Of a stretch of DNA of 45,917 bases, positions 2,734 through 45,917 are shown one piece after another. A model generated the notes under the pieces. That model did no database searches. It worked only from the letters and a program-made list of their open reading frames with translations, and was not told the origin of the DNA. Source of the DNA: Escherichia phage 2725-N35; sequence record MN840485.1; one strand, given 5' to 3'. A program made the translations under genes and the position numbers. The stretch's first letter is position 1. Each line of letters starts with the position of its first letter.

Positions 2734-3213
2734 ATGAATACAGTCGACAAGCGAACAATTAACGGCAATAACGGAACCATCCGCACCGAAGACAAAAAGC
2801 AACGTAAACGACCTTCAGGCTACTATGTTTTAAAAGATGAAGTAAGAGCCGGGCTACGCGCGCGGCTAGAGATAGTTCTTGATTTCTTCGGCACAAAGGC
2901 GAATATCGCAAAGCAGTTAAAGGTAACACCACAGGCTGTAGAAGAATGGTTTAAGCGCGGTATGATTTCTGCGCGTGGGGCTCAACTTTCTCACAACTAC
3001 TATAAGCGAAATGGAGAAGGTTTTCGCGCTACATTCTGCCGACCAGACCTGCAATTCGACGGCAACGGGAGACCGCTGACACTTCGGTGCAAAAAGCGCC
3101 ATATGCTGCGAGTCGTCACTGAGGCTGAATTAGCCACTAAGCCAGAGTGTCGTTCATGGCGCAAGATAAAATTAGAGAACCAAAAGAAGAAAGAGCAAAA
3201 CAGCACGATTTGA
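2734..3213 (+). CDS. DNA-binding protein with Cro/YdaS-like helix-turn-helix; putative transcriptional regulator
   Basis: 159 aa; 'TKANIAKQLKVTPQAVEEWFKRGMIS' HTH; SD GAGGT upstream of ATG. Confidence 0.55.
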   Translation: MNTVDKRTINGNNGTIRTEDKKQRKRPSGYYVLKDEVRAGLRARLEIVLDFFGTKANIAKQLKVTPQAVEEWFKRGMISARGAQLSHNYYKRNGEGFRATFCRPDLQFDGNGRPLTLRCKKRHMLRVVTEAELATKPECRSWRKIKLENQKKKEQNSTI

Positions 3214-4195: not shown

Positions 4196-4216
4196 CCTCC
4201 TTCGGGAGGTTTTTTT
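4196..4216 (+). terminator. Rho-independent terminator after primase
   Basis: CCTCC-ttcg-GGAGG hairpin followed by T7. Confidence 0.8.
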
Positions 4217-4221
4217 ATGAC

Positions 4222-4258
4222 TCAAAGATGCTACAATCCACTTTAGCAATTCGTGCTA
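4222..4258 (+). promoter_or_regulatory. Extended -10 promoter (TGcTACAAT) followed by an inverted copy of the P-box upstream motif; candidate operator
   Basis: gaTGCTACAATccacTTTAGCAATTCGTGCTATTTT immediately upstream of the tail fibre gene. Confidence 0.45.
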
Positions 4259-4282
4259 TTTTACAAATGGAGACTCTACACA

Positions 4283-9209: not shown

Positions 9210-9404
9210 TTATTCCTTAACCTTAACCACTTTAACAGACTTCAAATCTTCTTCAGTGAAGTAACCAGTCAGCACATCTCGGGCTTCTTCTTTAGTCTCG
9301 AATCTGTCAGCCTCTTTCTTATCTGTTGTGTACCCAGCAGGTCCACCAAAGTAGCAGTCGCCGAACAGTGCGTTGTTTTTCTCTTTGATAATGTAGTAGG
9401 TCAT
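9210..9404 (-). CDS. Hypothetical small protein
   Basis: 64 aa ORF, first gene after divergent region A. Confidence 0.45.
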   Translation of the reverse strand: MTYYIIKEKNNALFGDCYFGGPAGYTTDKKEADRFETKEEARDVLTGYFTEEDLKSVKVVKVKE

Positions 9405-9424
9405 TTCTCTATCTCTATGGTTGT

Positions 9425-9480
9425 TTGCTTTCGATTGGTTAACTATATATTCGGCACCGTAGCCAGTCCAATTGGTTTTG
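9425..9480 (-). promoter_or_regulatory. Degenerate P-box promoter for the 9404-leftward operon
   Basis: Minus reading: ...GCAAAACCAATTGG, 22 nt, TATATAGTTAACCAATCGAAAGC leader. Confidence 0.4.
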
Positions 9481-9711
9481 CCAATCGTTGATTCAATTTT
9501 ACGCGTTAATCATTGTAATTCCGTGTAGGTATTGCCGCTAGTTACGTTTCTTGGCATCTCAGCCCAGCTATAGCTCAATGTAACTAGTGTGTATGTCGTG
9601 TATATCATTTATTGCTGAGGGTGCATTGGTATAGCAGCCGCGCAATACTGTATAAATCCACATGATATTAAAATTATAACCGGAACACTCTATAGAAGTG
9701 GTTACATGATA

Positions 9712-9775
9712 TACACAGTAATATATATAATAATAATAATAAGAGTAAAAGGTTGTTATATATAGATATTTTAAT
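9712..9775. repeat. AT-rich element with (TAA)n microsatellite, copy 1 (copy 2 at ~36306..36372)
   Basis: acacagtaatatatataataataataataagagtaaaaggttgttatatatagatatt; ~90% identical to copy 2. Confidence 0.8.
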
Positions 9776-9867
9776 GTAACTAATGCGTAAATTAGCGTAA
9801 CAGAGCGTATATCATTTTCCGCGGATGAGATTGTATACATCGAGTTACATCGGTTACGTGTATGCAA

Positions 9868-28989: not shown

Positions 28990-29045
28990 GTGAAGTAACT
29001 ATACGCCATCCGTGGCTCTAGCGTTTAGCAATTCGTGCTATTTAA
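28990..29045 (-). promoter_or_regulatory. P-box promoter for the 28592..28966 moron
   Basis: AAATAGCACGAATTGCTAAAC, 22 nt, TATAGTTACTTCACACAAAC; the TerL stop codon (TAG) lies within the motif. Confidence 0.6.
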
Positions 29046-30609
29046 TTCCCGCTATGCGCATTAGTCGCGCTTTGGGGTCATCTGAGATATTGAGAACAAG
29101 GTTTACCGCCATTGTCATGGTATCAATTTGGTCGTCGTGCTTATGCGAGTCGTCTGCAGTGAAAGCCGCAATCTCAGTGAGTAATCCGCTTAGCCACGGT
29201 GCTGACTCCGGAAGAACGACGTTACCAGCCTTAATCTGTGGCAATGCGCTCATTACCCTAGTTAGCTTGTCGTTATCCGGTACGTATGGCTCTATCGGTG
29301 TTCGCATAACCCTGCCAGCTGATTGAATAAGGCCGATACCAGACGCTTTCTTCTCGATAATAATCTTTCGGAGGATACCATCCGACTGACTGGTTGCCCT
29401 TGATTTCTTCTCGAAGTCCAGTAGTTCAGCTTCCAATTCCGGCGCTTCCCACTTACCTCTGCGCTGGTCTATCAGGTAAATCCTAGCATCCTTATAGCCC
29501 CATAACTGAAGCACGGAGAAGTCACTATAACTCTTTGTGGTCATCGCAGTATCGCAAGTTATGAATCTATAATCGTACTTGGCTGGAGGCCTGAATGTAT
29601 CACTAAGACGCTGGAACCAGTCTACGTTAATCAGATTGCCACCAAGTGCTACAGGTTCTTGTTGATACTGACTTAGGAAAGTGTACGGGTCAGCATCCCA
29701 CATAGCCATCAAGTCTTCTATTGATTCCTTTGCCGGAAAGTAGCTGTAATACTTAACTCCATCCCGCTCTACGAATGGCGAAGAAAGAACATCATCAATA
29801 AATTGTTGCTTAATCCAATCAGGAAGCGTGTCTACGTAATCCTCTGTGACTATGGCTGGAACTTTCACTACGTCGAACTTGATGCCCATTTGTCCAGACT
29901 CCATGAAGTGGCTAGTATCCAGAACATGAAGTCTTTGCTGAACTGCAAGTATTGGCGTTTCCTTTCCCTTTACTGAGCTAGCTCGACGTGAACGAATTGT
30001 GTTCTTGAGAAGCATATTGACAGCCTCTCTTCTTACATTACTTAGCGCGTCATCAGGTTTTAGTGGGTCATCCAGCATTATGCAACCACTATAATCGTCA
30101 GTCATGTAGCCACCCCTACTTCCCGTCACCTGTCCAGCCATCGCCTTAGATATAGACTCAAACCTAACTTTGCCACTCTCATCCAGCACCTGAATCTCGT
30201 CATCCCTGCATGTTCCAAAGGTGCAAGGCCAAAGCTCCTGGAACTCCTTTGACTTAATTAGGTCACGGACGCGCTTGGAGTTGCGCTTAACCAATGAGTC
30301 AGAGAATGACAAACTAAGATTCCTGACCTTCTTAATCTTAATCATGCTATACACAGGGAAGTGAATGCTAAAAAGTTCGGTTTTGGCAGATCCAGGAGCT
30401 ATGTTTATGATGGTGTCCTTTCTCTTTCCCTCAAGAATCTCATCTATAACACGGCATAGGTACTTAGTATGCCAATTCATTTTGAATCTCTCGCCCTGAG
30501 TTATCTGGAAGAAACACCGCAAGAACCACTCGAAACTATGCTCAGAGATGGCCTTGATAGCCATTTTTTCTGCATACGTCAGTTCATCCCACACGATTAA
30601 ATCACTCAT
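29038..30609 (-). CDS. Terminase large subunit
   Basis: Walker A-like 'IAPGSAKT', Walker B 'CIMLDDP', C-terminal nuclease-like region; start chosen at ATG after GGAGG (track ORF extends to 30690, overlapping the HNH gene). Confidence 0.85.
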   Translation of the reverse strand: MSDLIVWDELTYAEKMAIKAISEHSFEWFLRCFFQITQGERFKMNWHTKYLCRVIDEILEGKRKDTIINIAPGSAKTELFSIHFPVYSMIKIKKVRNLSLSFSDSLVKRNSKRVRDLIKSKEFQELWPCTFGTCRDDEIQVLDESGKVRFESISKAMAGQVTGSRGGYMTDDYSGCIMLDDPLKPDDALSNVRREAVNMLLKNTIRSRRASSVKGKETPILAVQQRLHVLDTSHFMESGQMGIKFDVVKVPAIVTEDYVDTLPDWIKQQFIDDVLSSPFVERDGVKYYSYFPAKESIEDLMAMWDADPYTFLSQYQQEPVALGGNLINVDWFQRLSDTFRPPAKYDYRFITCDTAMTTKSYSDFSVLQLWGYKDARIYLIDQRRGKWEAPELEAELLDFEKKSRATSQSDGILRKIIIEKKASGIGLIQSAGRVMRTPIEPYVPDNDKLTRVMSALPQIKAGNVVLPESAPWLSGLLTEIAAFTADDSHKHDDQIDTMTMAVNLVLNISDDPKARLMRIAGIK

Positions 30610-31114
30610 CTTTCCTCCCATGGTTTTTATGATACCCAAGAATAAATTCAGCCCTCGCCCTGACAATCGACGCGTCGTGAATATTATCAAAGAATCCCAA
30701 GTGAATATTCTCTCCGTCCTTTTTTATTTGAGCCGCATACTTACCAGTCCTGGATACTATGCAGACTCCGGTAACCCCGGTCTTATTCCTCGAATTTATT
30801 GATTGATTCTTTCTATTTTCCTGAATTGTAACTAACCTAAGGTTTTCTATCCTGTTATCATTTCTAACATGATTTATATGGTCAATTTGCATACCTTCTG
30901 GTATTGCTCCGTTATGCATTTCCCAGATTATTCTATGAACCCAATATTTTTTACCCGGCATGTTTACCCTAACATACCCTAGGCTTTTATCAATGCCGCC
31001 AACCTCTTTCCCTATGAATCTTCGCTGTATCCTTCTCCTTCCAAGCTTCTCGCTATCGTAATCTTTCCAGTAAATCTTCCCATCTTTGTATTCAAAATAA
31101 TCATGCCAATTCAT
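30602..31114 (-). CDS. HNH endonuclease (homing-endonuclease-like)
   Basis: 'IDHINHVRNDNRIENLRLVTIQENRKNQ' HNH motif; inserted between terS and terL. Confidence 0.8.
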   Translation of the reverse strand: MNWHDYFEYKDGKIYWKDYDSEKLGRRRIQRRFIGKEVGGIDKSLGYVRVNMPGKKYWVHRIIWEMHNGAIPEGMQIDHINHVRNDNRIENLRLVTIQENRKNQSINSRNKTGVTGVCIVSRTGKYAAQIKKDGENIHLGFFDNIHDASIVRARAEFILGYHKNHGRKDE

Positions 31115-31182: not shown

Positions 31183-31689
31183 CTATAACTTACTAATAAC
31201 AGACTCCAGCGCTTCCTTCATGCTATCAACGTCGTTAGCTGTGGAGTTGTTGCTAATGGTAATCTCCTGCGGCTTATCAATCCCTAGCTCTTTACCAACG
31301 ATTGTGGAGTTGATGATGCCTGCAACGCCAAGCTGATACTTCTGCTCGTAAATTACGTTATCAATAAATTCCATCACATCAGAGTATCCAGCCTCTGTAC
31401 GCCAGCGTGCGAATCTATTGATGTTAACACCCATGAAGAGCGCCAGACCTGTTAATGTGAATACTCGAGGCTTGTGCACTAAACTCTCGCTAACCACGCC
31501 CTGGAATGCCGCCGTCTCAATGGCTTTGATTGCCTCATTCTCAGCCCATGAAAAGTATCTCACTGCAAAGTCAAATACCTCCTCTGGAGTGCACTTGCGG
31601 TTGATTGCCACCATAGCAATATCGCCATACTTCTTGTTATAAAGCGCCTTGAAATTTCCATCACCCATCTTTAATGCTGCTTTGCTCAT
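31183..31689 (-). CDS. Terminase small subunit, putative
   Basis: 168 aa directly upstream of HNH/TerL; first gene after a strong promoter. Confidence 0.6.
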   Translation of the reverse strand: MSKAALKMGDGNFKALYNKKYGDIAMVAINRKCTPEEVFDFAVRYFSWAENEAIKAIETAAFQGVVSESLVHKPRVFTLTGLALFMGVNINRFARWRTEAGYSDVMEFIDNVIYEQKYQLGVAGIINSTIVGKELGIDKPQEITISNNSTANDVDSMKEALESVISKL

Positions 31690-31999: not shown

Positions 32000-32077
32000 T
32001 GGCGCTCCGCACTGGATTCGAACCAGTAACCTACGACTTAGAAGGTCGTTGCTTCTGTCCTGTTGAGCTAGCAGAGC
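32000..32077 (-). tRNA. tRNA-Arg(UCU): tRNA-Arg (anticodon UCU) with encoded CCA
   Basis: Minus-strand GCTCTGC...ACGAC-CTTCTAA-GTCGT...ACTGG-TTCGAAT-CCAGT-GCGGAGC-G-CCA: 7-bp acceptor, 5-bp anticodon stem with UCU, canonical T-arm. D-arm is irregular. Confidence 0.75.
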
Positions 32078-35375: not shown

Positions 35376-35478
35376 CGCTCATGGGTGATTTCATTTCCCA
35401 AAAGCATTCCATCTACGATACAAATCCATAGCCACCTCCACCTCTTCCTCACTGTACCGCAAGTGGTATGGTAGTCTA

Positions 35479-36027
35479 CTACTTAGTCTCCTTAATCATT
35501 TCCTGATAAGCATTAATCATTGTAACAGCGCCCTTAAGTTCTTCACCTTCCAAGCCAGCAACACTTGGTGACAGCTTGAGCAGTCTAGACTTGAACTTTT
35601 CAATGATAGCCGCCTCTTTCTCCGCTTCCTGCTTTTTCTTTTCGCGACTCCCAGTCCAGTGCGCGCCGTTCTCAATGTATATGACCAGGTATTTATCAGC
35701 GCCATCACCGTCGAAGCTACCGGGCCTTGTTTGCTCTCCGTCATCATCAATCCAGATGAACTTATATCTCGCTCGCTTATTAGCATCGCGAAGCTCTGTC
35801 ATTCTCGACACTGTGTTATAGATGTATGAGTTCTTTAGTTCCGGCATCGCCCTATCTGCCAGGTTGAGGATCTCACTAGTCTCTTCGTCATACACCATTT
35901 CAGGGTATTCCTTGCCTCGAACCAGTTTGAATATCTGGCTAACCGGAACTTTAAACTCACCACTCTCGGACACCATCGCGTTGCGCACCATCTCACGGAT
36001 AACTTCACCTAGTGTTACTTTCTGCAT
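35479..36027 (-). CDS. Hypothetical early protein
   Basis: 182 aa; first gene leftward of divergent region B. Confidence 0.5.
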   Translation of the reverse strand: MQKVTLGEVIREMVRNAMVSESGEFKVPVSQIFKLVRGKEYPEMVYDEETSEILNLADRAMPELKNSYIYNTVSRMTELRDANKRARYKFIWIDDDGEQTRPGSFDGDGADKYLVIYIENGAHWTGSREKKKQEAEKEAAIIEKFKSRLLKLSPSVAGLEGEELKGAVTMINAYQEMIKETK

Positions 36028-36039
36028 GTTGATACCTCG

Positions 36040-36110
36040 TTTGTTTTACTTCGTTTCAGTGACTGCTATATTGCCATCTATTTACGTGTCGGTCAATGTA
36101 TATTTTCGTC
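36040..36110 (-). promoter_or_regulatory. Promoter for the 36027-leftward operon (TTGACC -35-like, TATAGC -10-like)
   Basis: Minus reading: ATACATTGACCgacacgtaaatagatggcaaTATAGCagtcactGAAACGAAG; resembles P-box downstream half. Confidence 0.4.
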
Positions 36111-36305
36111 TATTTTATCATGGATACGCTTTTTGCCTCCAGAGGCCCCTCCATTGCTGGTTGTAAATGTGCCGTATCCGATGTGTACAGATTTTTGAAG
36201 CCATTCCCTATATATGTGCCTTTTATTCCTACAATGCCATCCATTTCTGACAGGTGTCAGAATATCTGCGCGGAACATATCAATAATCTCACCAATTACC
36301 GGTAT

Positions 36306-36372
36306 ACACAGTATACATATATATAATAATAATAATAATAATAAAGTAAAAGGTTGATATATATAGATATTA
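36306..36372. repeat. AT-rich element with (TAA)n microsatellite, copy 2
   Basis: acacagtatacatatatataataataataataataaagtaaaaggttgatatatatagatatt; matches copy 1 at ~9712..9775. Confidence 0.8.
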
Positions 36373-36479
36373 TATTGTATATCGTGTGTATATATCGCGT
36401 AAAAACGTAGGTTAGTGGTCACTAACTTTTGTGACGACACTGAGTATACGGAGGATACGCGTATATCCGTGAGGCTCCC

Positions 36480-36660
36480 ATAGATTGGTAAAAATCAACT
36501 TGTATGGTAGTCAATCCATCTTTCATTCACTCACTCACCACTTCATTTCACTTTTCGCAACAATCAAAAACATCATTGCATCTGAAGCAATATTGCTATA
36601 TGCGCAATAATCATGTGAATCATTGCAATATCTGCAACAATCCATAAATCTGACGAATGG
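36480..36660. repeat. Cluster of short direct/inverted repeats (iteron-like) in divergent region B
   Basis: Repeated GCAACAATC, CATTGCA(A)T, palindrome GCAATATTGC, and tcattcac/tcatttcac direct repeats. Confidence 0.5.
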
Positions 36661-36715
36661 CACTTTTTGCTAAAGACATGCGGGGATGGCGAGGATATAG
36701 TTAACTCATCAAAAC
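36660..36715 (+). promoter_or_regulatory. P-box promoter for the rightward small-gene operon
   Basis: AATGGCACTTTTTGCTAAAG, 23 nt, TATAGTTAACTCATCAAAACGAGG. Confidence 0.6.
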
Positions 36716-36727
36716 GAGGGGATAGAA

Positions 36728-36955
36728 ATGAAAGTAAAGGTTATTGATCTTGATTTCTGTGGTGATATTTATGATGACGAGTATGAGTACTATGGCATCA
36801 ATAAAGGCGGTGTGTATGAAGTGGTAACTACTTATCCTGACCTTGAGGCAATTGTAGTGGTTAACAAGTATTGCCGTAATGTTATGCTCTACAATAATGA
36901 GGTTGAGATCTATGAAGAAAAAATAAAGATGAATTACGTAATGAGTGCGCACTGA
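36728..36955 (+). CDS. Small protein, paralog family member 1
   Basis: MKVKVIDLDF...YYGINKGGVYEV; shares MKIK..FD...YYG(I/V).(N/D)G.VY(E/D)V pattern with two downstream ORFs. Confidence 0.55.
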   Translation: MKVKVIDLDFCGDIYDDEYEYYGINKGGVYEVVTTYPDLEAIVVVNKYCRNVMLYNNEVEIYEEKIKMNYVMSAH

Positions 36956-37101
36956 TTGGGCTTAACGAAGATTACACTGACCTTGTGTTGCGCGGAAAGT
37001 TGGACATAGACTTAGCTAAGCAATTCCAGTCAGAAGATGAATTCATGTGCTGCGATGGACTTGGCTGCGTCGAATGCTTACCATTTATTTGAGGATTGAG
37101 A

Positions 37102-37275
37102 TATGAAAATTAAGATTGTTAAGTTTGATACGATTTACACAACAGATTATTACGGCATTGACATTGGCAAAGTTTATGATGTGTTCATGGATTGCATGGA
37201 TGGAAGGGTTGTAATAATTGACGGTACATCTAAGCCGCTTGTTATTCATCCTGGTGAGTTTGAGGTGGTAGAATG
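37102..37275 (+). CDS. Small protein, paralog family member 2 (~58 aa)
   Basis: MKIKIVKFDTIYTTDYYGIDIGKVYDVF...; SD GAGG; coordinates approximate. Confidence 0.45.
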
Positions 37276-37512
37276 AAAATTCGCTGCAATAACGTTATTA
37301 CAAGCACCGACAAGAAAGTATTAACACCATTCGTAAAAGGCTCTGTATACGACGCTGAGCCGCTAATCATTAACGGCAAGACAATCCCGAACGAGTGGTT
37401 GATTAATGGCGCTGAGCGACCTCACAAGCACGATTCTGGGTGGATTGCCATTTCTGGCTGGAAGGTAGGAATGTTTATTCCTGGGATTGCAACTTTTGAT
37501 GAGGTGAAGTGA
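37273..37512 (+). CDS. Hypothetical small protein
   Basis: 79 aa, overlaps neighbours by 4 nt. Confidence 0.5.
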   Translation: MKIRCNNVITSTDKKVLTPFVKGSVYDAEPLIINGKTIPNEWLINGAERPHKHDSGWIAISGWKVGMFIPGIATFDEVK

Positions 37513-38722: not shown

Positions 38723-40306
38723 ATGTTTGATTTCAACGAAGATAAACTATCTGTTGAGCAGGTTATGGCAATTGCTGCTGCGGACAATCTTCCACCTCTG
38801 CGCGTCGCTATTAATGCTAATGGCTATCGCCAGTCTCAATCATTCTGGAAAGCGCCAGTCGAGATTGATGCAGCTAATGACAAGTATCCCGTAATCTCAC
38901 TCGGTAATGACATTGATGTTGTTGGGAAGCTGTCATCTAACATCGCTCGCTCAGTTCAGTTTCCTGAGTCTTCAGCATACATGCACTTCCTTGGGTGTAT
39001 TTCAGCCGCCATGCTTGGTCGATTCACTGTTGAGTACCACGGAACTCAGCAGCCAACATCTCTTTACGTAGTAACCAGTCAGCCACCATCCACAGGTAAA
39101 TCAGCAATTAACTCGCTTTCTATTGCGCCAATGATTGCTGAGACTGAGCGGCTTAATGAAGTGCGAAAGCGTGAGCGTAAAAAGATTATGGCAAAGCTGT
39201 CTGCATTATCCAAAGAGATGAAGCAGGAAAAGTCACCATCAGAGATGGCGTCTCTCTTTGAGGAGAAAGAGGATTTAGAGGAGAAGCTGGAAAAGATGTG
39301 CGATATCGTATTTCCAGTGTCAGATACCACTCCGGAAGGTCTTGCACGAATAAACAACCGCCAGGGTAACTTTGCTGTAATCTCGGATGAAGCAACTAGC
39401 GTCAACTCACTTCTTGGCATGACCTATGGTGACGGCTCTAAGAAAACGAACAGCGAGCTCGTACTCAAGGCGTGGGATGCTGGTAACGTGTCCATTGCGC
39501 GTGCGAACGCAGAAAACAACATGAGCTTCGTTGCTATGGGATGCATCTCTGTAATTGCGCAAGATGAGACAATAAACGCAATCATGAATGCTGGTGCTCG
39601 TGGTATTGGTGTGTCGGAACGTTTTCTACTTGTGCGTGAAAAATCATTCCTTGGCGAGCGTGTATTCGTCGATGAGAATGGAGACTCAACGTATGAGCCA
39701 ATTGATGGTAGCCTGAAGGCTGACTACTTCCGCCTGGTTCACGAAATCATGAGTGAGCAAGATGTTAAGTTGACGGTAAGCAACTCAGCGATGAAATATC
39801 TCAACCGAGCACGTCAGGAAATGGAGCCGCACCTTGCAGACGGCGGTAAGTATTCACACACAATGTTGCGCGGTGCTCTTGGTAAGTTCGATAAGCAGGC
39901 TATCAAGATTGCAGCGGTTCTTCACACGGTGCGTAACTGGTTCAACCCTAGCGGTGGGAGTCCACAGAAATCAAGAGAGATTGAGCTTGATACCATGCAA
40001 GAAGCCGTCATTATGTTTCAGGAACTTAGCAAGACTTATCTTTCATCCGCTAACGCCGCTGGTCACGCTGGCGACAATGCTGAGATGAACAAGTTGATTG
40101 ATATACTAATCAAGCAAGGCAAAAACGGAAAGGGCGTAGTTGGTATTCGCTCGTTGTATGAAGCTGCTCGCAAGGTTAAGCCATTCGAAGCTCAGGCTGG
40201 AGTGATGACGAAGATTAAAGATCACTTGCTGCCAATGCTTGATGAGAAAAACTACACGTGCCTGATTGGTGATAAGGTTTACATTAATCCGCGATTGCTG
40301 GGGTGA
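38723..40306 (+). CDS. P-loop NTPase of unknown function (Walker A/B)
   Basis: 527 aa; Walker A 'SQPPSTGKS', Walker B-like 'FAVISDEA'; a coiled-coil-like insert lies between them. Confidence 0.6.
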   Translation: MFDFNEDKLSVEQVMAIAAADNLPPLRVAINANGYRQSQSFWKAPVEIDAANDKYPVISLGNDIDVVGKLSSNIARSVQFPESSAYMHFLGCISAAMLGRFTVEYHGTQQPTSLYVVTSQPPSTGKSAINSLSIAPMIAETERLNEVRKRERKKIMAKLSALSKEMKQEKSPSEMASLFEEKEDLEEKLEKMCDIVFPVSDTTPEGLARINNRQGNFAVISDEATSVNSLLGMTYGDGSKKTNSELVLKAWDAGNVSIARANAENNMSFVAMGCISVIAQDETINAIMNAGARGIGVSERFLLVREKSFLGERVFVDENGDSTYEPIDGSLKADYFRLVHEIMSEQDVKLTVSNSAMKYLNRARQEMEPHLADGGKYSHTMLRGALGKFDKQAIKIAAVLHTVRNWFNPSGGSPQKSREIELDTMQEAVIMFQELSKTYLSSANAAGHAGDNAEMNKLIDILIKQGKNGKGVVGIRSLYEAARKVKPFEAQAGVMTKIKDHLLPMLDEKNYTCLIGDKVYINPRLLG

Positions 40307-44882: not shown

Positions 44883-45079
44883 TCTGATACCTCATCAAAT
44901 TTTTCGCCAAATTCGTTTTTAACAGTTTCTAAATCATCTTTGTAGCTAGGGCTAACTTCGAAAGAGTAATCTCCATCCATTACATCAATGAGGATGTAAC
45001 CATCTTCTGTGATGACCAACTCATATTCGTAACCAGTTTTGCGTGATTCGTAGAATTTTCCAGTGTAGATAGTAGCCAT
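44879..45079 (-). CDS. Hypothetical small protein
   Basis: Start set at ATG (MATIYTGKFY...) 30 nt downstream of the P-box -10; track ORF extends to 45127. Confidence 0.45.
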   Translation of the reverse strand: MATIYTGKFYESRKTGYEYELVITEDGYILIDVMDGDYSFEVSPSYKDDLETVKNEFGEKFDEVSE

Positions 45080-45116
45080 TTTATTTCTCTCTTTGTGTTT
45101 CGTTTCGATGGAGTAA

Positions 45117-45162
45117 CTATACCCCATCTTTTAAAATCGCCTTTAGCAATTCGTGCTATTTT
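45117..45162 (-). promoter_or_regulatory. P-box promoter (archetype; duplicated at ~182..228)
   Basis: AAAATAGCACGAATTGCTAAAGG, 22 nt, TATAGTTACTCCATCGAAACGAAAC; VRR-NUC stop TAG lies inside the box. Confidence 0.6.
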
Positions 45163-45575
45163 GAAATCATTTCTTTGAATGCTGCAAGAAAACCCTCACG
45201 TCCGTAGGCGACTGCCGAGAAACCGCCTGATTCCATTACACTTTTCAGGAATGCCTTCTGTTCTTCGCTGACTGGACTTGCTTGAGTTTTGCCAGCCCTC
45301 TTTAGCTCTATAGCTCCGAAAGGATACTTACCTCGAAGTGATTCAGGAATAAGAAACATACAGTCTGATACGCCTTTTAGAAGCCCCTTAGCCTGGTCTT
45401 TTCTTGCTTGACCAATGGTTTTCTTTCCCTCATTCACGCAATGGAAAAATACCATATCTGGGTAGTTATACTTAACCCAATCAGAGCAAAAGATTTGTTC
45501 GTCATCCTCTTTAGGGCATGACTTAACCGGACCAGGGTAAAACTCAATGTAATCTTCTTTATCTGTAATCTTCAT
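45156..45575 (-). CDS. VRR-NUC-like nuclease (duplicate of 222..641 within the terminal repeat)
   Basis: Identical 139-aa translation. Confidence 0.6.
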   Translation of the reverse strand: MKITDKEDYIEFYPGPVKSCPKEDDEQIFCSDWVKYNYPDMVFFHCVNEGKKTIGQARKDQAKGLLKGVSDCMFLIPESLRGKYPFGAIELKRAGKTQASPVSEEQKAFLKSVMESGGFSAVAYGREGFLAAFKEMISK

Positions 45576-45917
45576 AATAATTCTCCAAAATTCTTAAACG
45601 CTATCACGTCCTTTCCTTTTGCATTCCGGCGATGCGTAACCTGAACTGGCGCACGGAACTTATCTACGTTAGTCATAATCATTCTGGCATTTTTAAGCCT
45701 GCCAATTCGCGCCGCTTCCGTGCGATTCTCAATATGAGCTAAGCAAAAGTTCTTCCAGAGCACACTGCAAACTCGATGGTCTGATTCTGGATTAAAGAAC
45801 TCCCAAGCGTTAAATCTCTCTCCGTTATGAGCCATTATATTGTACTTAACTACAATGCCTGTCTGATTCTTACTTAACCCAACTTGAAAATCATAAACAC
45901 GAAGGTAATCACCACGA
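45572..45917 (-). CDS. Helicase gene, 3' portion (duplicate, truncated by the window end)
   Basis: Translation identical to the C-terminus of the 638..2632 product. Confidence 0.6.
   Translation of the reverse strand, partial: RGDYLRVYDFQVGLSKNQTGIVVKYNIMAHNGERFNAWEFFNPESDHRVCSVLWKNFCLAHIENRTEAARIGRLKNARMIMTNVDKFRAPVQVTHRRNAKGKDVIAFKNFGELL

Follow-up and report, generated by a model that had tools for sequence, protein, structure and literature searches.

The 700-bp divergent gap at positions 36028-36727 of Escherichia phage 2725-N35 is most likely the "genome-start" hub of a T1-like phage with headful packaging, composed of four separable elements, namely a probable pac region, a putative promoter on either side and an AT-rich module; a conserved non-coding block within it (36491-36655) is probably the pac region at which headful packaging would be initiated. 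Positions are those of the window, that is, the whole stretch of 45,917 nucleotides analyzed here (MN840485.1), and the features discussed below are listed in Table 1. The first-pass annotation had described the gap as a divergent control region, and this description is borne out, the gap combining a non-random repeat cluster with an AT-rich element and with outward-facing promoters. The gap is largely ordinary and in part already known for the T1-like phage family, and our analysis does not overturn the current understanding but mostly refines the locations of known kinds of elements.

Table 1. Coordinates of the features described in the text (positions in the window)
Feature	Position	Strand	Sequence, evidence or context
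Large terminase gene	29038-30690	-	Pfam Terminase_6C, E = 9.8e-8; syntenic with the large terminase genes of T1 and Rtp
Small terminase gene	31183-31689	-	Pfam PF16677 GP3_package, E = 9.7e-13, 48.6 bits (cut-off 29.4)
AT-rich composite module, copy A	9703-9815		Other divergent gap, between the recE operon (leftward) and a cor-type lipoprotein gene (rightward)
DUF7174 gene, putative leftward promoter and 5' leader	36028-36110	-	Sequence reading; alignment with relatives
Palindrome, operator-like candidate	36226-36262		TTCCTACA at 36226-36233, then TTCTGACA-gg-TGTCAGAA at 36245-36262; position conserved in relatives
AT-rich composite module, copy B	36296-36426		GTATACACAGTATAC, AT tract at 36302-36382 (at least 88% A+T), then the features given in the text
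Imperfect palindrome	36448-36470		ACGGAgGATACG/CGTATaTCCGT, conserved core TACGCGTATA; left of the predicted cut, in the DNA that would be packaged
Predicted first-cut zone	36490-36514	-	Homology to relatives' termini only
Conserved non-coding block, proposed pac recognition region	36491-36655 (conservation to 36680)		CTCACTCAC at 36528-36536 and GCAAY/RTTGC cluster at 36557-36646
Upstream element of the putative rightward promoter	36657-36675	+	ATGGCACTTTTTGCTAAAG; T1-family 21-nt direct repeat aaATAGCACnnnTTGnTAAAA with 1 mismatch
-10 element, leader and start of the putative rightward promoter	36696-36730	+	TATAGT at 36696-36701, leader ...CATCAAAACGAGGGGA, RBS, ATG at 36728; first rightward gene 36728-36955

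Genome and non-coding gap

The window corresponds to a T1-like phage (Drexlerviridae, Veterinaerplatzvirus), with 96-98% identity to Veterinaerplatzvirus T145P1 and synteny with T1 and Rtp. The equivalent gap measures 704-709 bp in 12210I, JeanPiccard and AHP42, 669 bp in AugustePiccard and ~700 bp in T1, and no gene is annotated in the homologous gap of any of these relatives. The gap had been presented as the largest non-coding region of the genome, which agrees with the annotations of the relatives; a greedy tiling of open reading frames was uninformative in this respect, spurious ORFs filling the gaps. The ORFs found inside the gap do not retain their reading frame across relatives and have no Pfam matches. 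The gap is bordered by a gene with a Pfam DUF7174 match on the left (35479-36027) and by a gene for a 75-aa protein without Pfam match on the right.

Conserved repeat block

All the repeat motifs that had been listed for the right half of the gap were found at their positions, comprising GCAACAATC at 36557-36565 and 36634-36642 (with one further copy in the 45.9 kb), CATTGCA(A)T starting at 36574 and 36621, the direct repeats TCATTCAC at 36523 and TCATTTCAC at 36543, and a 10-bp palindrome, GCAATATTGC, at 36587-36596. The latter occurs once in the window and lengthens to a perfect 12-bp palindrome, AGCAATATTGCT, at 36586-36597; the cluster also contains ATTGCAAT at 36622. The common denominator of the listed motifs is the pentamer GCAAY/RTTGC, which starts at 36557, 36575, 36587, 36592, 36604, 36622, 36625 and 36634, in both orientations and at irregular spacing. 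With 8 pentamers, 36557-36646 is the densest 90-nt stretch of the genome and its only such peak (at most 5 elsewhere, the count of the runner-up), compared with a background of 6.5 per kb, equivalent to ~0.6 in a stretch of this length; a chance origin of the cluster is unlikely. The longest family of direct repeats in the cluster comprises 2 copies of 28 nt with 75% identity.

The cluster lies in a block (36491-36655) that shares 77-97% identity across Braunvirinae and Rogunavirinae, with sharp borders and diverged flanks, and that is homologous to the T1 gap (score of 92, compared with 38 +/- 6.8 in shuffles). The more distant TLS-like subfamilies carry AATCA, GATC and GGAATAAT repeats at the equivalent place, and the GCAAY motif is therefore not universal. 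Conservation in related phages, which the first-pass annotation had named as a check on the repeats, was thus found in Braunvirinae and Rogunavirinae and did not extend to the TLS-like subfamilies, where other repeats stand in their place.

We considered a coding function of the block, whether for a small protein or for a structured small RNA, extremely unlikely. Several ORFs of 40-50 codons overlap it, a "membrane" or "hypothetical" protein is annotated there in some records, a weak terminator-like hairpin is found on the - strand (36644-36616), and Rfam family ES003 (E = 0.15) is one of two sub-threshold matches obtained on the gap at E <= 1. However, the ORFs break or shift frame among relatives, every frame is equally "conserved", the variable columns of the block have no 3-nt periodicity (entropy by codon position of 0.46, 0.43 and 0.52, that is, flat) and Pfam returned no match, which led us to reject a hidden small gene. 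A structured RNA was likewise rejected, as RNAalifold on 13 homologues gave a consensus energy of -7.7 kcal/mol over 170 nt with compensatory support for none of the 13 predicted pairs and an unfavourable covariation term, and as Rfam at gathering threshold found one tRNA in the whole window and nothing in the gap.

Sharp bounds, a single occurrence in the genome and the lack of periodicity, covariation and Rfam matches suggest that the block behaves as a protein-binding element at the DNA level. A satellite or prophage carrying the block would have favoured pac, and a search for such elements in 5,426 E. coli genomes yielded no match.

Virion termini and packaging

T1-like phages package DNA by a pac-initiated headful mechanism (PMC11447400), and the T1 pac is described as lying in the untranslated region between two arms of small genes (PMC7718038). 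We mapped the virion DNA ends or record ends of relatives onto the window. The PhageTerm peak of MSK, a single terminus at 36,862 in the forward direction (PMC8421802), maps to 36507/36508, its forward direction corresponding to decreasing window coordinates. The start of the UDF157lw record, which was reorganised by PhageTerm (PMC10838988), maps to ~36513, and the end of the SU57 record, set at an abrupt change in read frequency with a PhageTerm verdict of "several possible ends" (PMC7718038), maps to ~36490; these three termini derive from sequencing reads. Position 1 of T1 (a linear record with a terminal repeat at 1-2800) aligns inside the block, to ~36592, within the T1 copy of GCAACAATCAC, and position 1 of Rtp to 36597/36598, although both record starts may be inexact, or one may have been adopted by convention from the other. 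Position 1 of TLS, which is its restriction-mapped pac, falls in the homologous repeat zone. Altogether the termini of relatives spread over ~100 bp (36490-36598); for KanT1, another T1-like phage, PhageTerm gave no obvious termini. Left of ~36490, many relatives abruptly lose homology. That the cluster is the place where the virion ends of relatives map points to a pac site.

Both a small and a large terminase of headful type are encoded by phage 2725-N35, the small terminase gene being syntenic with the annotated small terminase genes of T1 (ST54) and Rtp (Rtp19). In the mechanism that we propose, the array of GCAAY/RTTGC half-sites would be the assembly site of the small terminase, a member of the P22-gp3 family, and the large terminase (nuclease/ATPase) would make the first cut at the left border of the block, at ~36490-36514, perhaps as the main one of a staggered set extending to ~36598. 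The first headful would be packaged in the direction of decreasing coordinates, taking in the AT-rich module and then the leftward early genes, and subsequent headfuls would be cut by capacity rather than by sequence. Cutting of phage 2725-N35 DNA at 36490-36514 is a prediction from the termini of relatives, and the half-sites could be used by a protein other than the small terminase, with the cut merely adjoining them; the GCAAY array as the recognition sequence of T1-like pac sites is a proposal of the present analysis.

The gap takes the same place in the genome as the T1 and TLS pac regions, as a divergent gap of ~700 bp that separates two arms of small early genes and lies upstream of the arm with the gp09-type helicase, and the small terminases are of one family. 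With the T1 gap it shares two copies of GCAACAATC(AC), CATTGCA, a CTCAC motif and the promoter module. Differences are that T1 and TLS-type phages have added GATC clusters and GGAATAAT repeats, both missing from phage 2725-N35, and that in T1 the cluster is preceded by a second promoter module.

The P22 pac was included in the comparison because the TLS authors used AGATTT and because the small terminase is gp3-like. P22 shares with phage 2725-N35 the GP3_package family of small terminases and headful packaging from a single site. Its staggered first cuts are spread across ~100 bp, a series with which the scatter of the termini of relatives is compatible. The P22 pac lies inside gene 3 and consists of a 22-bp site recognised by gp3, whereas the site proposed here is non-coding, ~4.8 kb from the small terminase gene, and made up of multiple half-sites rather than of one asymmetric 22-mer. 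Sequence similarity to the P22 site is not above chance: the match of the 22-mer GAAGATTTATCTGAAGTCGTTA around the 8-mer AGATTTAT at 36644-36651 (- strand) reaches only 11/22, with 8/12 in the core, and was discarded as not significant, the best score genome-wide being 15/22 at three unrelated places.

In P1 and SPP1, short repeated boxes flank a central cut (pacL-pacC-pacR) in bent or AT-rich DNA, with an IHF site in P1. The gap, with GYGTAW repeats, an AT tract and an IHF-like core to the left of the predicted cut and the GCAAY array to its right, resembles this layout, and the whole of 36296-36655 might be read as a bipartite pac with the bent AT module as one arm, the GCAAY array as the other and the cut between them. 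The predicted cut would then stand about midway, at ~80-110 bp from the GYGTAW repeats on one side and ~50-130 bp from the GCAAY cluster on the other, the AT module contains an exact match to the IHF core, one of just 3 genome-wide, and, according to the MSK paper (PMC8421802), ATATA repeats had been indicated in earlier work as the T1 pac. We nevertheless regard this reading as unlikely. The AT module is duplicated in a second divergent gap (region A) in the window, T1, Rtp and UDF157lw, yet the MSK terminus is single, and many relatives retain the GCAAY block at 95-97% identity with an unalignable sequence left of ~36490, so that the two halves are not inherited as a unit. P1 and SPP1 have no sequence relationship with the gap and their small terminase families differ, their sites differ in that the AT-rich arm is here duplicated elsewhere, and the Dam-regulated GATC hexamers of P1 are missing from the phage 2725-N35 cluster. 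Our preferred reading remains a pac region confined to the conserved block.

Putative promoters and operator-like sites

The outward-facing promoter-like elements that had been reported on both sides of the gap were recovered, the right one as a clear copy of a genome-wide module and the left one as a plausible promoter followed by the leader motif of the family. On the left, TTGACC read on the - strand (+ strand positions 36091-36096), a 17-nt spacer and CAATAT/TATAGC (36065-36073) form a plausible sigma-70-like leftward promoter (~36065-36096), followed by the leader ...CTGAAACGAAG..., an RBS and the ATG at 36027; the leader and the -10 region are conserved as far as Rogunavirinae.

On the right, 36657-36701 appears to be a promoter of the T1-family "ATAGCAC-N3-TTGCTAAA ... 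TATAGT" type, of which the genome has ~19 modules, and it would drive the rightward early operon leading to the DUF3987 helicase (38723-40306). Its upstream element has no substantive difference from the T1-family direct repeat, whose consensus, orientation along transcription and placement ~76 nt upstream of the start codon were published for TLS (PMC11447400), and the start of the repeat at 36657 is 71 nt from the ATG. In the literature, this direct repeat is a candidate UP-like element, activator site or "stoperator". Citrobacter phage Miller carries a nearly identical promoter module, and no HTH homologue from RB43-like phages carrying the module was found among the matches listed. The PeSL promoter cassettes of RB49 are analogous to the 36657-36701 module but not the same. 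A literature search for transcriptome data in the T1-like family returned nothing relevant.

A further palindrome, at 36226-36262, may be an operator-like site. In Rogunavirus (AHP42, e4/1c and UDF157lw), both arms of its 36245-36262 part are co-changed to ATTCCTACA-g-TGTAGGAAT, and AugustePiccard has another palindrome at the equivalent place.

The repeat cluster itself had been proposed as a multi-operator switch, with the half-sites serving as operators of a phage regulator, such as the Cro-like HTH protein encoded at 2734-3213, acting at the divergent early promoters. The 12-bp palindrome AGCAATATTGCT does resemble the promoter element TAGCAC-N-TGCTA with a spacer one base shorter (36599-, 3 mismatches), the T1 cluster has a promoter module on either side, and the abstract of the Rtp paper reportedly proposes that the HTH protein Rtp52 acts at the inverted repeat of the module. 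The arrangement in the gap nonetheless makes this reading very unlikely: the half-sites differ (TTGCA in the cluster, TAGCA in the promoter element), the cluster stands upstream of the upstream element and overlaps the -35/-10 of neither core promoter, no regulator gene is adjacent, no DNA-binding domain is recognisable in the flanking genes and no HTH was found in the right arm. The termini would also be left unexplained, in contrast to the pac reading.

Candidate replication origin

The AT-rich element in the left half of the gap had been annotated as the second copy of an element seen elsewhere in the genome, and this duplication was confirmed, 36303-36402 aligning with 9710-9800 with a score of 100 (22 +/- 2.6 in shuffles). 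These two copies hold the only 50-nt segments of the window with at least 88% A+T. In copy B, the AT tract includes the IHF-core match TATCAACCTTTTA at 36347-36359 (- strand) and is followed by G(C/T)GTA(A/T)-type repeats at 36386, 36397 and ~36406 and by the palindrome GTTAGTG-gt-CACTAAC at 36411-36426. Copy A has GCGTAA, GCGTAA and GCGTAT at 9785, 9795 and 9805, with a 10-bp period, and a promoter module at 9867. The skeleton of region A is otherwise like that of the gap, with an AT module followed by a promoter, but without a GCAAY/RTTGC cluster.

We collected loci from IMG/VR with the DUF7174 protein (6 loci) and the helicase (39 loci) as queries, and the module was present in the same gap in T1, Rtp, UDF157lw and 14 further IMG/VR loci, counting those that extended far enough upstream. 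The two copies are likewise paralogous to each other in Rtp, T1 and UDF157lw; the module occurs twice per genome in four phages. No description of the module was found in the open literature searched.

No replication origin has been found for T1-like phages (PMC11447400). The first-pass annotation had seen the layout of an iteron-type origin in the gap, with the cluster at 36520-36650 supplying the iterons and the AT-rich element serving for unwinding. In favour of this reading, the repeats are genuine and conserved, the same gap contains an AT-rich tract, a helicase gene is found 2 kb downstream, and the role of origin is vacant in T1-like phages (PMC11447400). We nonetheless judged this assignment improbable and did not retain it. 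The repeats are short (5-9 bp), in both orientations and unevenly spaced, with no set of at least three same-orientation direct repeats of ~17-22 bp at regular spacing in the cluster, and the cluster is ~175 bp from the AT tract (36302-36382), which instead adjoins the 6-bp GYGTAW repeats at 36386-36411. Region A has the AT module without the cluster, and no initiator of Rep or O type is encoded nearby: neither a Rep, O or DnaA-type domain nor a repressor was recognised among the flanking genes. The replication gene closest to the gap is that of the DUF3987 helicase, 2 kb away, and the primase, which has a Zn-ribbon, is encoded elsewhere in the genome (3242-4195). Finally, the virion termini of relatives map to the cluster, which an origin does not predict. 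GC skew was rejected as an origin indicator, since it merely follows gene orientation.

Iterons are typically direct repeats of 17-22 bp in at least 3-4 copies, located in or next to the initiator gene, as in lambda ori and plasmid oriV. The gap resembles such origins in having repeats and an AT-rich block within one non-coding region, with helically phased GCGTAW repeats of 10-bp period; it differs in that the cluster at 36520-36650 has none of the iteron traits and in that the GCGTAW repeats are just 6 bp long and come without an identified initiator. The earlier remark on repeats next to an AT-rich block therefore applies to the G(C/T)GTA(A/T) repeats, which it had not listed and which adjoin the AT tract at a ~10-bp period in both copies of the module, and not to the cluster it referred to.

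The AT-rich module is the better origin candidate of the two. Among its possible functions we rank that of a replication origin or DNA-unwinding element first, tentatively. Each copy would comprise a conserved GTATACACAGTA box, an ~80-bp AT tract with an IHF-like core, two to four helically phased G(C/T)GTA(A/T) repeats and a short palindrome, and would sit between divergent promoters. It is conceivable, though we hold it with low confidence, that the module is the replication origin of T1-like phages, present twice per genome, with transcription-driven negative supercoiling opening each copy. The gap studied here would then fuse an origin, a pac site and the early promoters into a single "genome start" hub.

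Significance

T1-like phages are common contaminants of laboratories and fermentations as well as candidates for phage therapy, and their cis-acting sites are poorly defined. Placing pac within ~150 bp, together with a candidate recognition array, would aid the correct orientation of genomes, the prediction of generalised transduction and the engineering of T1-like phages. The AT-rich module, conserved twice per genome, offers a concrete and easily testable candidate for the replication origins of the family.

Genome layout and content of the gap

The window is the complete genome of a T1-like siphophage. Over 35400-37400, identity reaches 96-98% with Veterinaerplatzvirus T145P1 and about 87% with other Braunvirinae; the gene order of the genome is that of T1 and Rtp on the opposite strand. 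Positions 1-983 are identical to 44935-45917, which leaves about 44.93 kb of unique genome. This overlap falls in the helicase region, away from the proposed headful packaging initiation site (pac), and so appears to stem from assembly or permutation and not to be a physical terminal repeat. Outside the gap, an HNH endonuclease gene (Pfam HNH_3) separates the small terminase gene from that of the large terminase and, with the ORF limits as listed, overlaps the beginning of the latter; Rtp has the same arrangement. The left arm of early genes carries a tRNA-Arg gene, which JeanPiccard and other relatives also have. Records named "Campylobacter phage A110b" (search match H5), "Pseudomonas phage PsgS01F" (H82/H184) and the 143-kb "Enterococcus phage vB_EfeBG-143" (H172) contain this T1-like sequence too (84-97% identity) and probably reflect mislabelled hosts, contamination or chimeric assemblies.

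Features of the divergent gap and its surroundings
Feature	Position	Strand	Remark
Leftward gene flanking gap	35479-36027	-	Pfam DUF7174
Rightward gene flanking gap	36728-36955	+	75 codons; first gene of operon reaching DUF3987 helicase
DUF3987 helicase	38723-40306	+	T1 gp09 homologue
Predicted rightward promoter	upstream element 36657-36675; TATAGT 36696-36701; ATG 36728	+	module copy
HNH endonuclease gene	30602-31114	-	Pfam HNH_3
tRNA-Arg	32000-32077	-	anticodon TCT

The equivalent gap in relatives (669-709 bp) has no annotated gene. A coding role for the repeat cluster at ~36520-36650 was rejected, as the gap ORFs break or shift frame among relatives and variable columns hardly differ in entropy between the three codon positions; searched against Pfam, these ORFs gave no match. 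An RNA was rejected as well, with no Rfam match reaching threshold and a 13-sequence consensus fold in which no pair had compensatory changes and the covariation term was unfavourable.

Repeat cluster and putative pac region

All motifs listed for the cluster by the first-pass annotation were recovered at the positions given, and all come down to GCAAY/RTTGC pentamers. Eight of these pentamers fall within 36557-36646, the densest 90-nt stretch of the genome (runner-up 5, background 6.5 per kb), and the reported 10-bp palindrome is part of a 12-bp one (AGCAATATTGCT, 36586-36597). The proposal that the cluster is an iteron-type origin did not hold: its repeats are short, point both ways and lie at irregular spacings, the AT tract lies ~175 bp off and there is no initiator or repressor gene nearby, which sets it outside the known iteron origins. 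The cluster likewise falls outside multi-operator switches, again with no repressor gene nearby.

The cluster belongs to a block with sharp borders (36491-36680) that is 77-97% identical over Braunvirinae and Rogunavirinae and was not found in 5,426 E. coli genomes. For many relatives, the alignment with the window sets in abruptly at ~36490 and continues rightward at 95-97% identity, the left side not being alignable. The homologous T1 gap aligns with a score of 92 (shuffles 38 +/- 6.8) and has in common with the window two copies of GCAACAATC(AC), CATTGCA, a CTCAC motif and the promoter module.

The decisive clue to the role of the cluster is the location of the genome ends of relatives. The linear record of T1 has a terminal repeat at 1-2800 and both ends inside the homologous gap, its position 1 lying inside the second GCAACAATCAC and aligning to window ~36592; the T1 pac was placed in the same untranslated region by the SU57 authors (PMC7718038). 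Position 1 of Rtp maps to 36597|36598, and the record of TLS, whose pac was restriction-mapped (PMC11447400), starts in the homologous repeat zone, immediately right of a ACTCACTCAC motif. Read-based ends show closer mutual agreement: the MSK PhageTerm peak (36,862, forward strand only; PMC8421802) maps to 36507|36508, the start of the UDF157lw record reorganised by PhageTerm (PMC10838988) to ~36513, and the SU57 end, set where read frequency changes abruptly (PMC7718038), to ~36490.

Since these ends map in the block and the small terminase is of the P22 gp3 family (Pfam), we read the cluster as the probable pac region, and file the whole gap region with the left-end hub of T1 and TLS that combines pac with early promoters. 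The small terminase would read GCAAY half-sites, the first packaging cut would fall at the left border of the cluster, and packaging would run toward lower coordinates. The terminase family is common to P22 and the window phage but the pac sequence is not: a P22-type pac sequence was rejected, the match to the P22 22-mer being not above chance, though the 8-mer AGATTTAT is common to both.

In distant relatives (TLS-like and others), the order of AT module, repeat zone and promoter module is kept, with AATCA runs, GATC clusters and GGAATAAT in place of the window repeats, so the GCAAY motif is subfamily-specific. Conserved architecture with differing repeats is the pattern that a co-evolving recognition site would show. 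The cluster-homologous zone of T1 and TLS-type phages (L005 and loci L032-L048, upstream of the promoter module) carries 2-4 close GATC sites and GGAATAAT/ATTCCAG repeats, whereas the window cluster has none; this arrangement recalls the Dam-sensitive hexamers in P1 pac. Dam methylation is encoded or used by T1 and TLS. What is new here, modest in content, is a base-level proposal for the pac region of the T1-like family, together with the AT-rich module described below.

Promoters and operator-like sequences

Promoter-like elements face outward on both sides of the gap, as the first-pass annotation had noted. The right one is a copy of a family module present ~19 times in the genome, upstream of early and late genes, and corresponds to the 21-nt repeat aaATAGCACnnnTTGnTAAAA known from TLS, T1, Rtp and Rogue1, whose function is debated (PMC11447400). 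The left one is a less canonical predicted promoter (TTGACC-17-CAATAT/TATAGC) followed by the family leader GAAACGA, and is conserved into Rogunavirinae.

The full module at 36653-36722 (upstream element, spacer, TATAGTTA, leader ATCAAAAC and RBS) is ~80-83% identical to intergenic sequence of RB43-like T4-type phages (Pseudotevenvirus), among them Citrobacter phage Miller (1199-1278) and Cronobacter, Enterobacter and Klebsiella relatives; there it precedes a small early gene. Among the matches listed, homologues of the T1-type HTH regulator are confined to ~44-52-kb genomes and two short partial records, which argues that host machinery reads the module or that it is mobile as a cassette. A perfect upstream element in reverse (TTTAGCAATTCGTGCTATTT, 4242-4261) lies between the primase and tail-fibre genes, directly past a strong terminator hairpin (4196-4216), and is the copy that opposes the direction of its flanking genes. 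A further upstream element, at 2699-2733 and assigned to the leftward helicase (638-2632), directly precedes the rightward HTH regulator gene (2734-3213), whose own promoter probably overlaps it; this overlap may represent autoregulation.

At 36226-36262, TTCCTACA precedes the palindrome TTCTGACA-gg-TGTCAGAA. In Rogunaviruses this position holds ATTCCTACA-g-TGTAGGAAT, both arms altered together, and AugustePiccard has an unrelated palindrome, a pattern that may point to an operator co-evolving with a protein.

AT-rich module

The AT-rich element of the gap, described by the first-pass annotation as a second copy, is a true paralogue of 9703-9815 (alignment score 100, shuffles 22 +/- 2.6). The window, T1 and Rtp each have only two 50-nt segments of at least 88% A+T, both at homologous divergent gaps; both module copies are present in UDF157lw, and the gap copy in 14 further IMG/VR loci whose sequence reaches far enough upstream. 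The order is fixed: a GTATACACAGTA box, the AT tract, AAGGTTG(A/T)TATATATAGATATT, 2-4 G(C/T)GTA(A/T) repeats with a period of 9-11 bp, and a short palindrome. In the gap copy, the complement of AAGGTTG(A/T)TATATATAGATATT matches the IHF core exactly, as only two other sites in the genome do; the other copy has three exact GCGTAW, the genome's only such triple. Some more distant relatives (L029, L039, L041, L045 and L047) carry an extra strongly AT-rich segment (~9300-9650, ~3.3-3.6 kb past the helicase start) downstream of the helicase/lysis region, with no counterpart above threshold in the window.

The other divergent gap has the same skeleton, AT module then promoter module, without the GCAAY block. 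The two are thus separable elements, and a unique pac cannot depend on the AT module alone. With a meltable tract and phased short repeats between divergent promoters, the module is a reasonable candidate for a replication origin, which, judged from sequence, we put forward tentatively and as rather unlikely. No origin was found in T1-like phages according to the TLS paper (PMC11447400), and this module, conserved and present twice per genome, may be the missing origin of the family.
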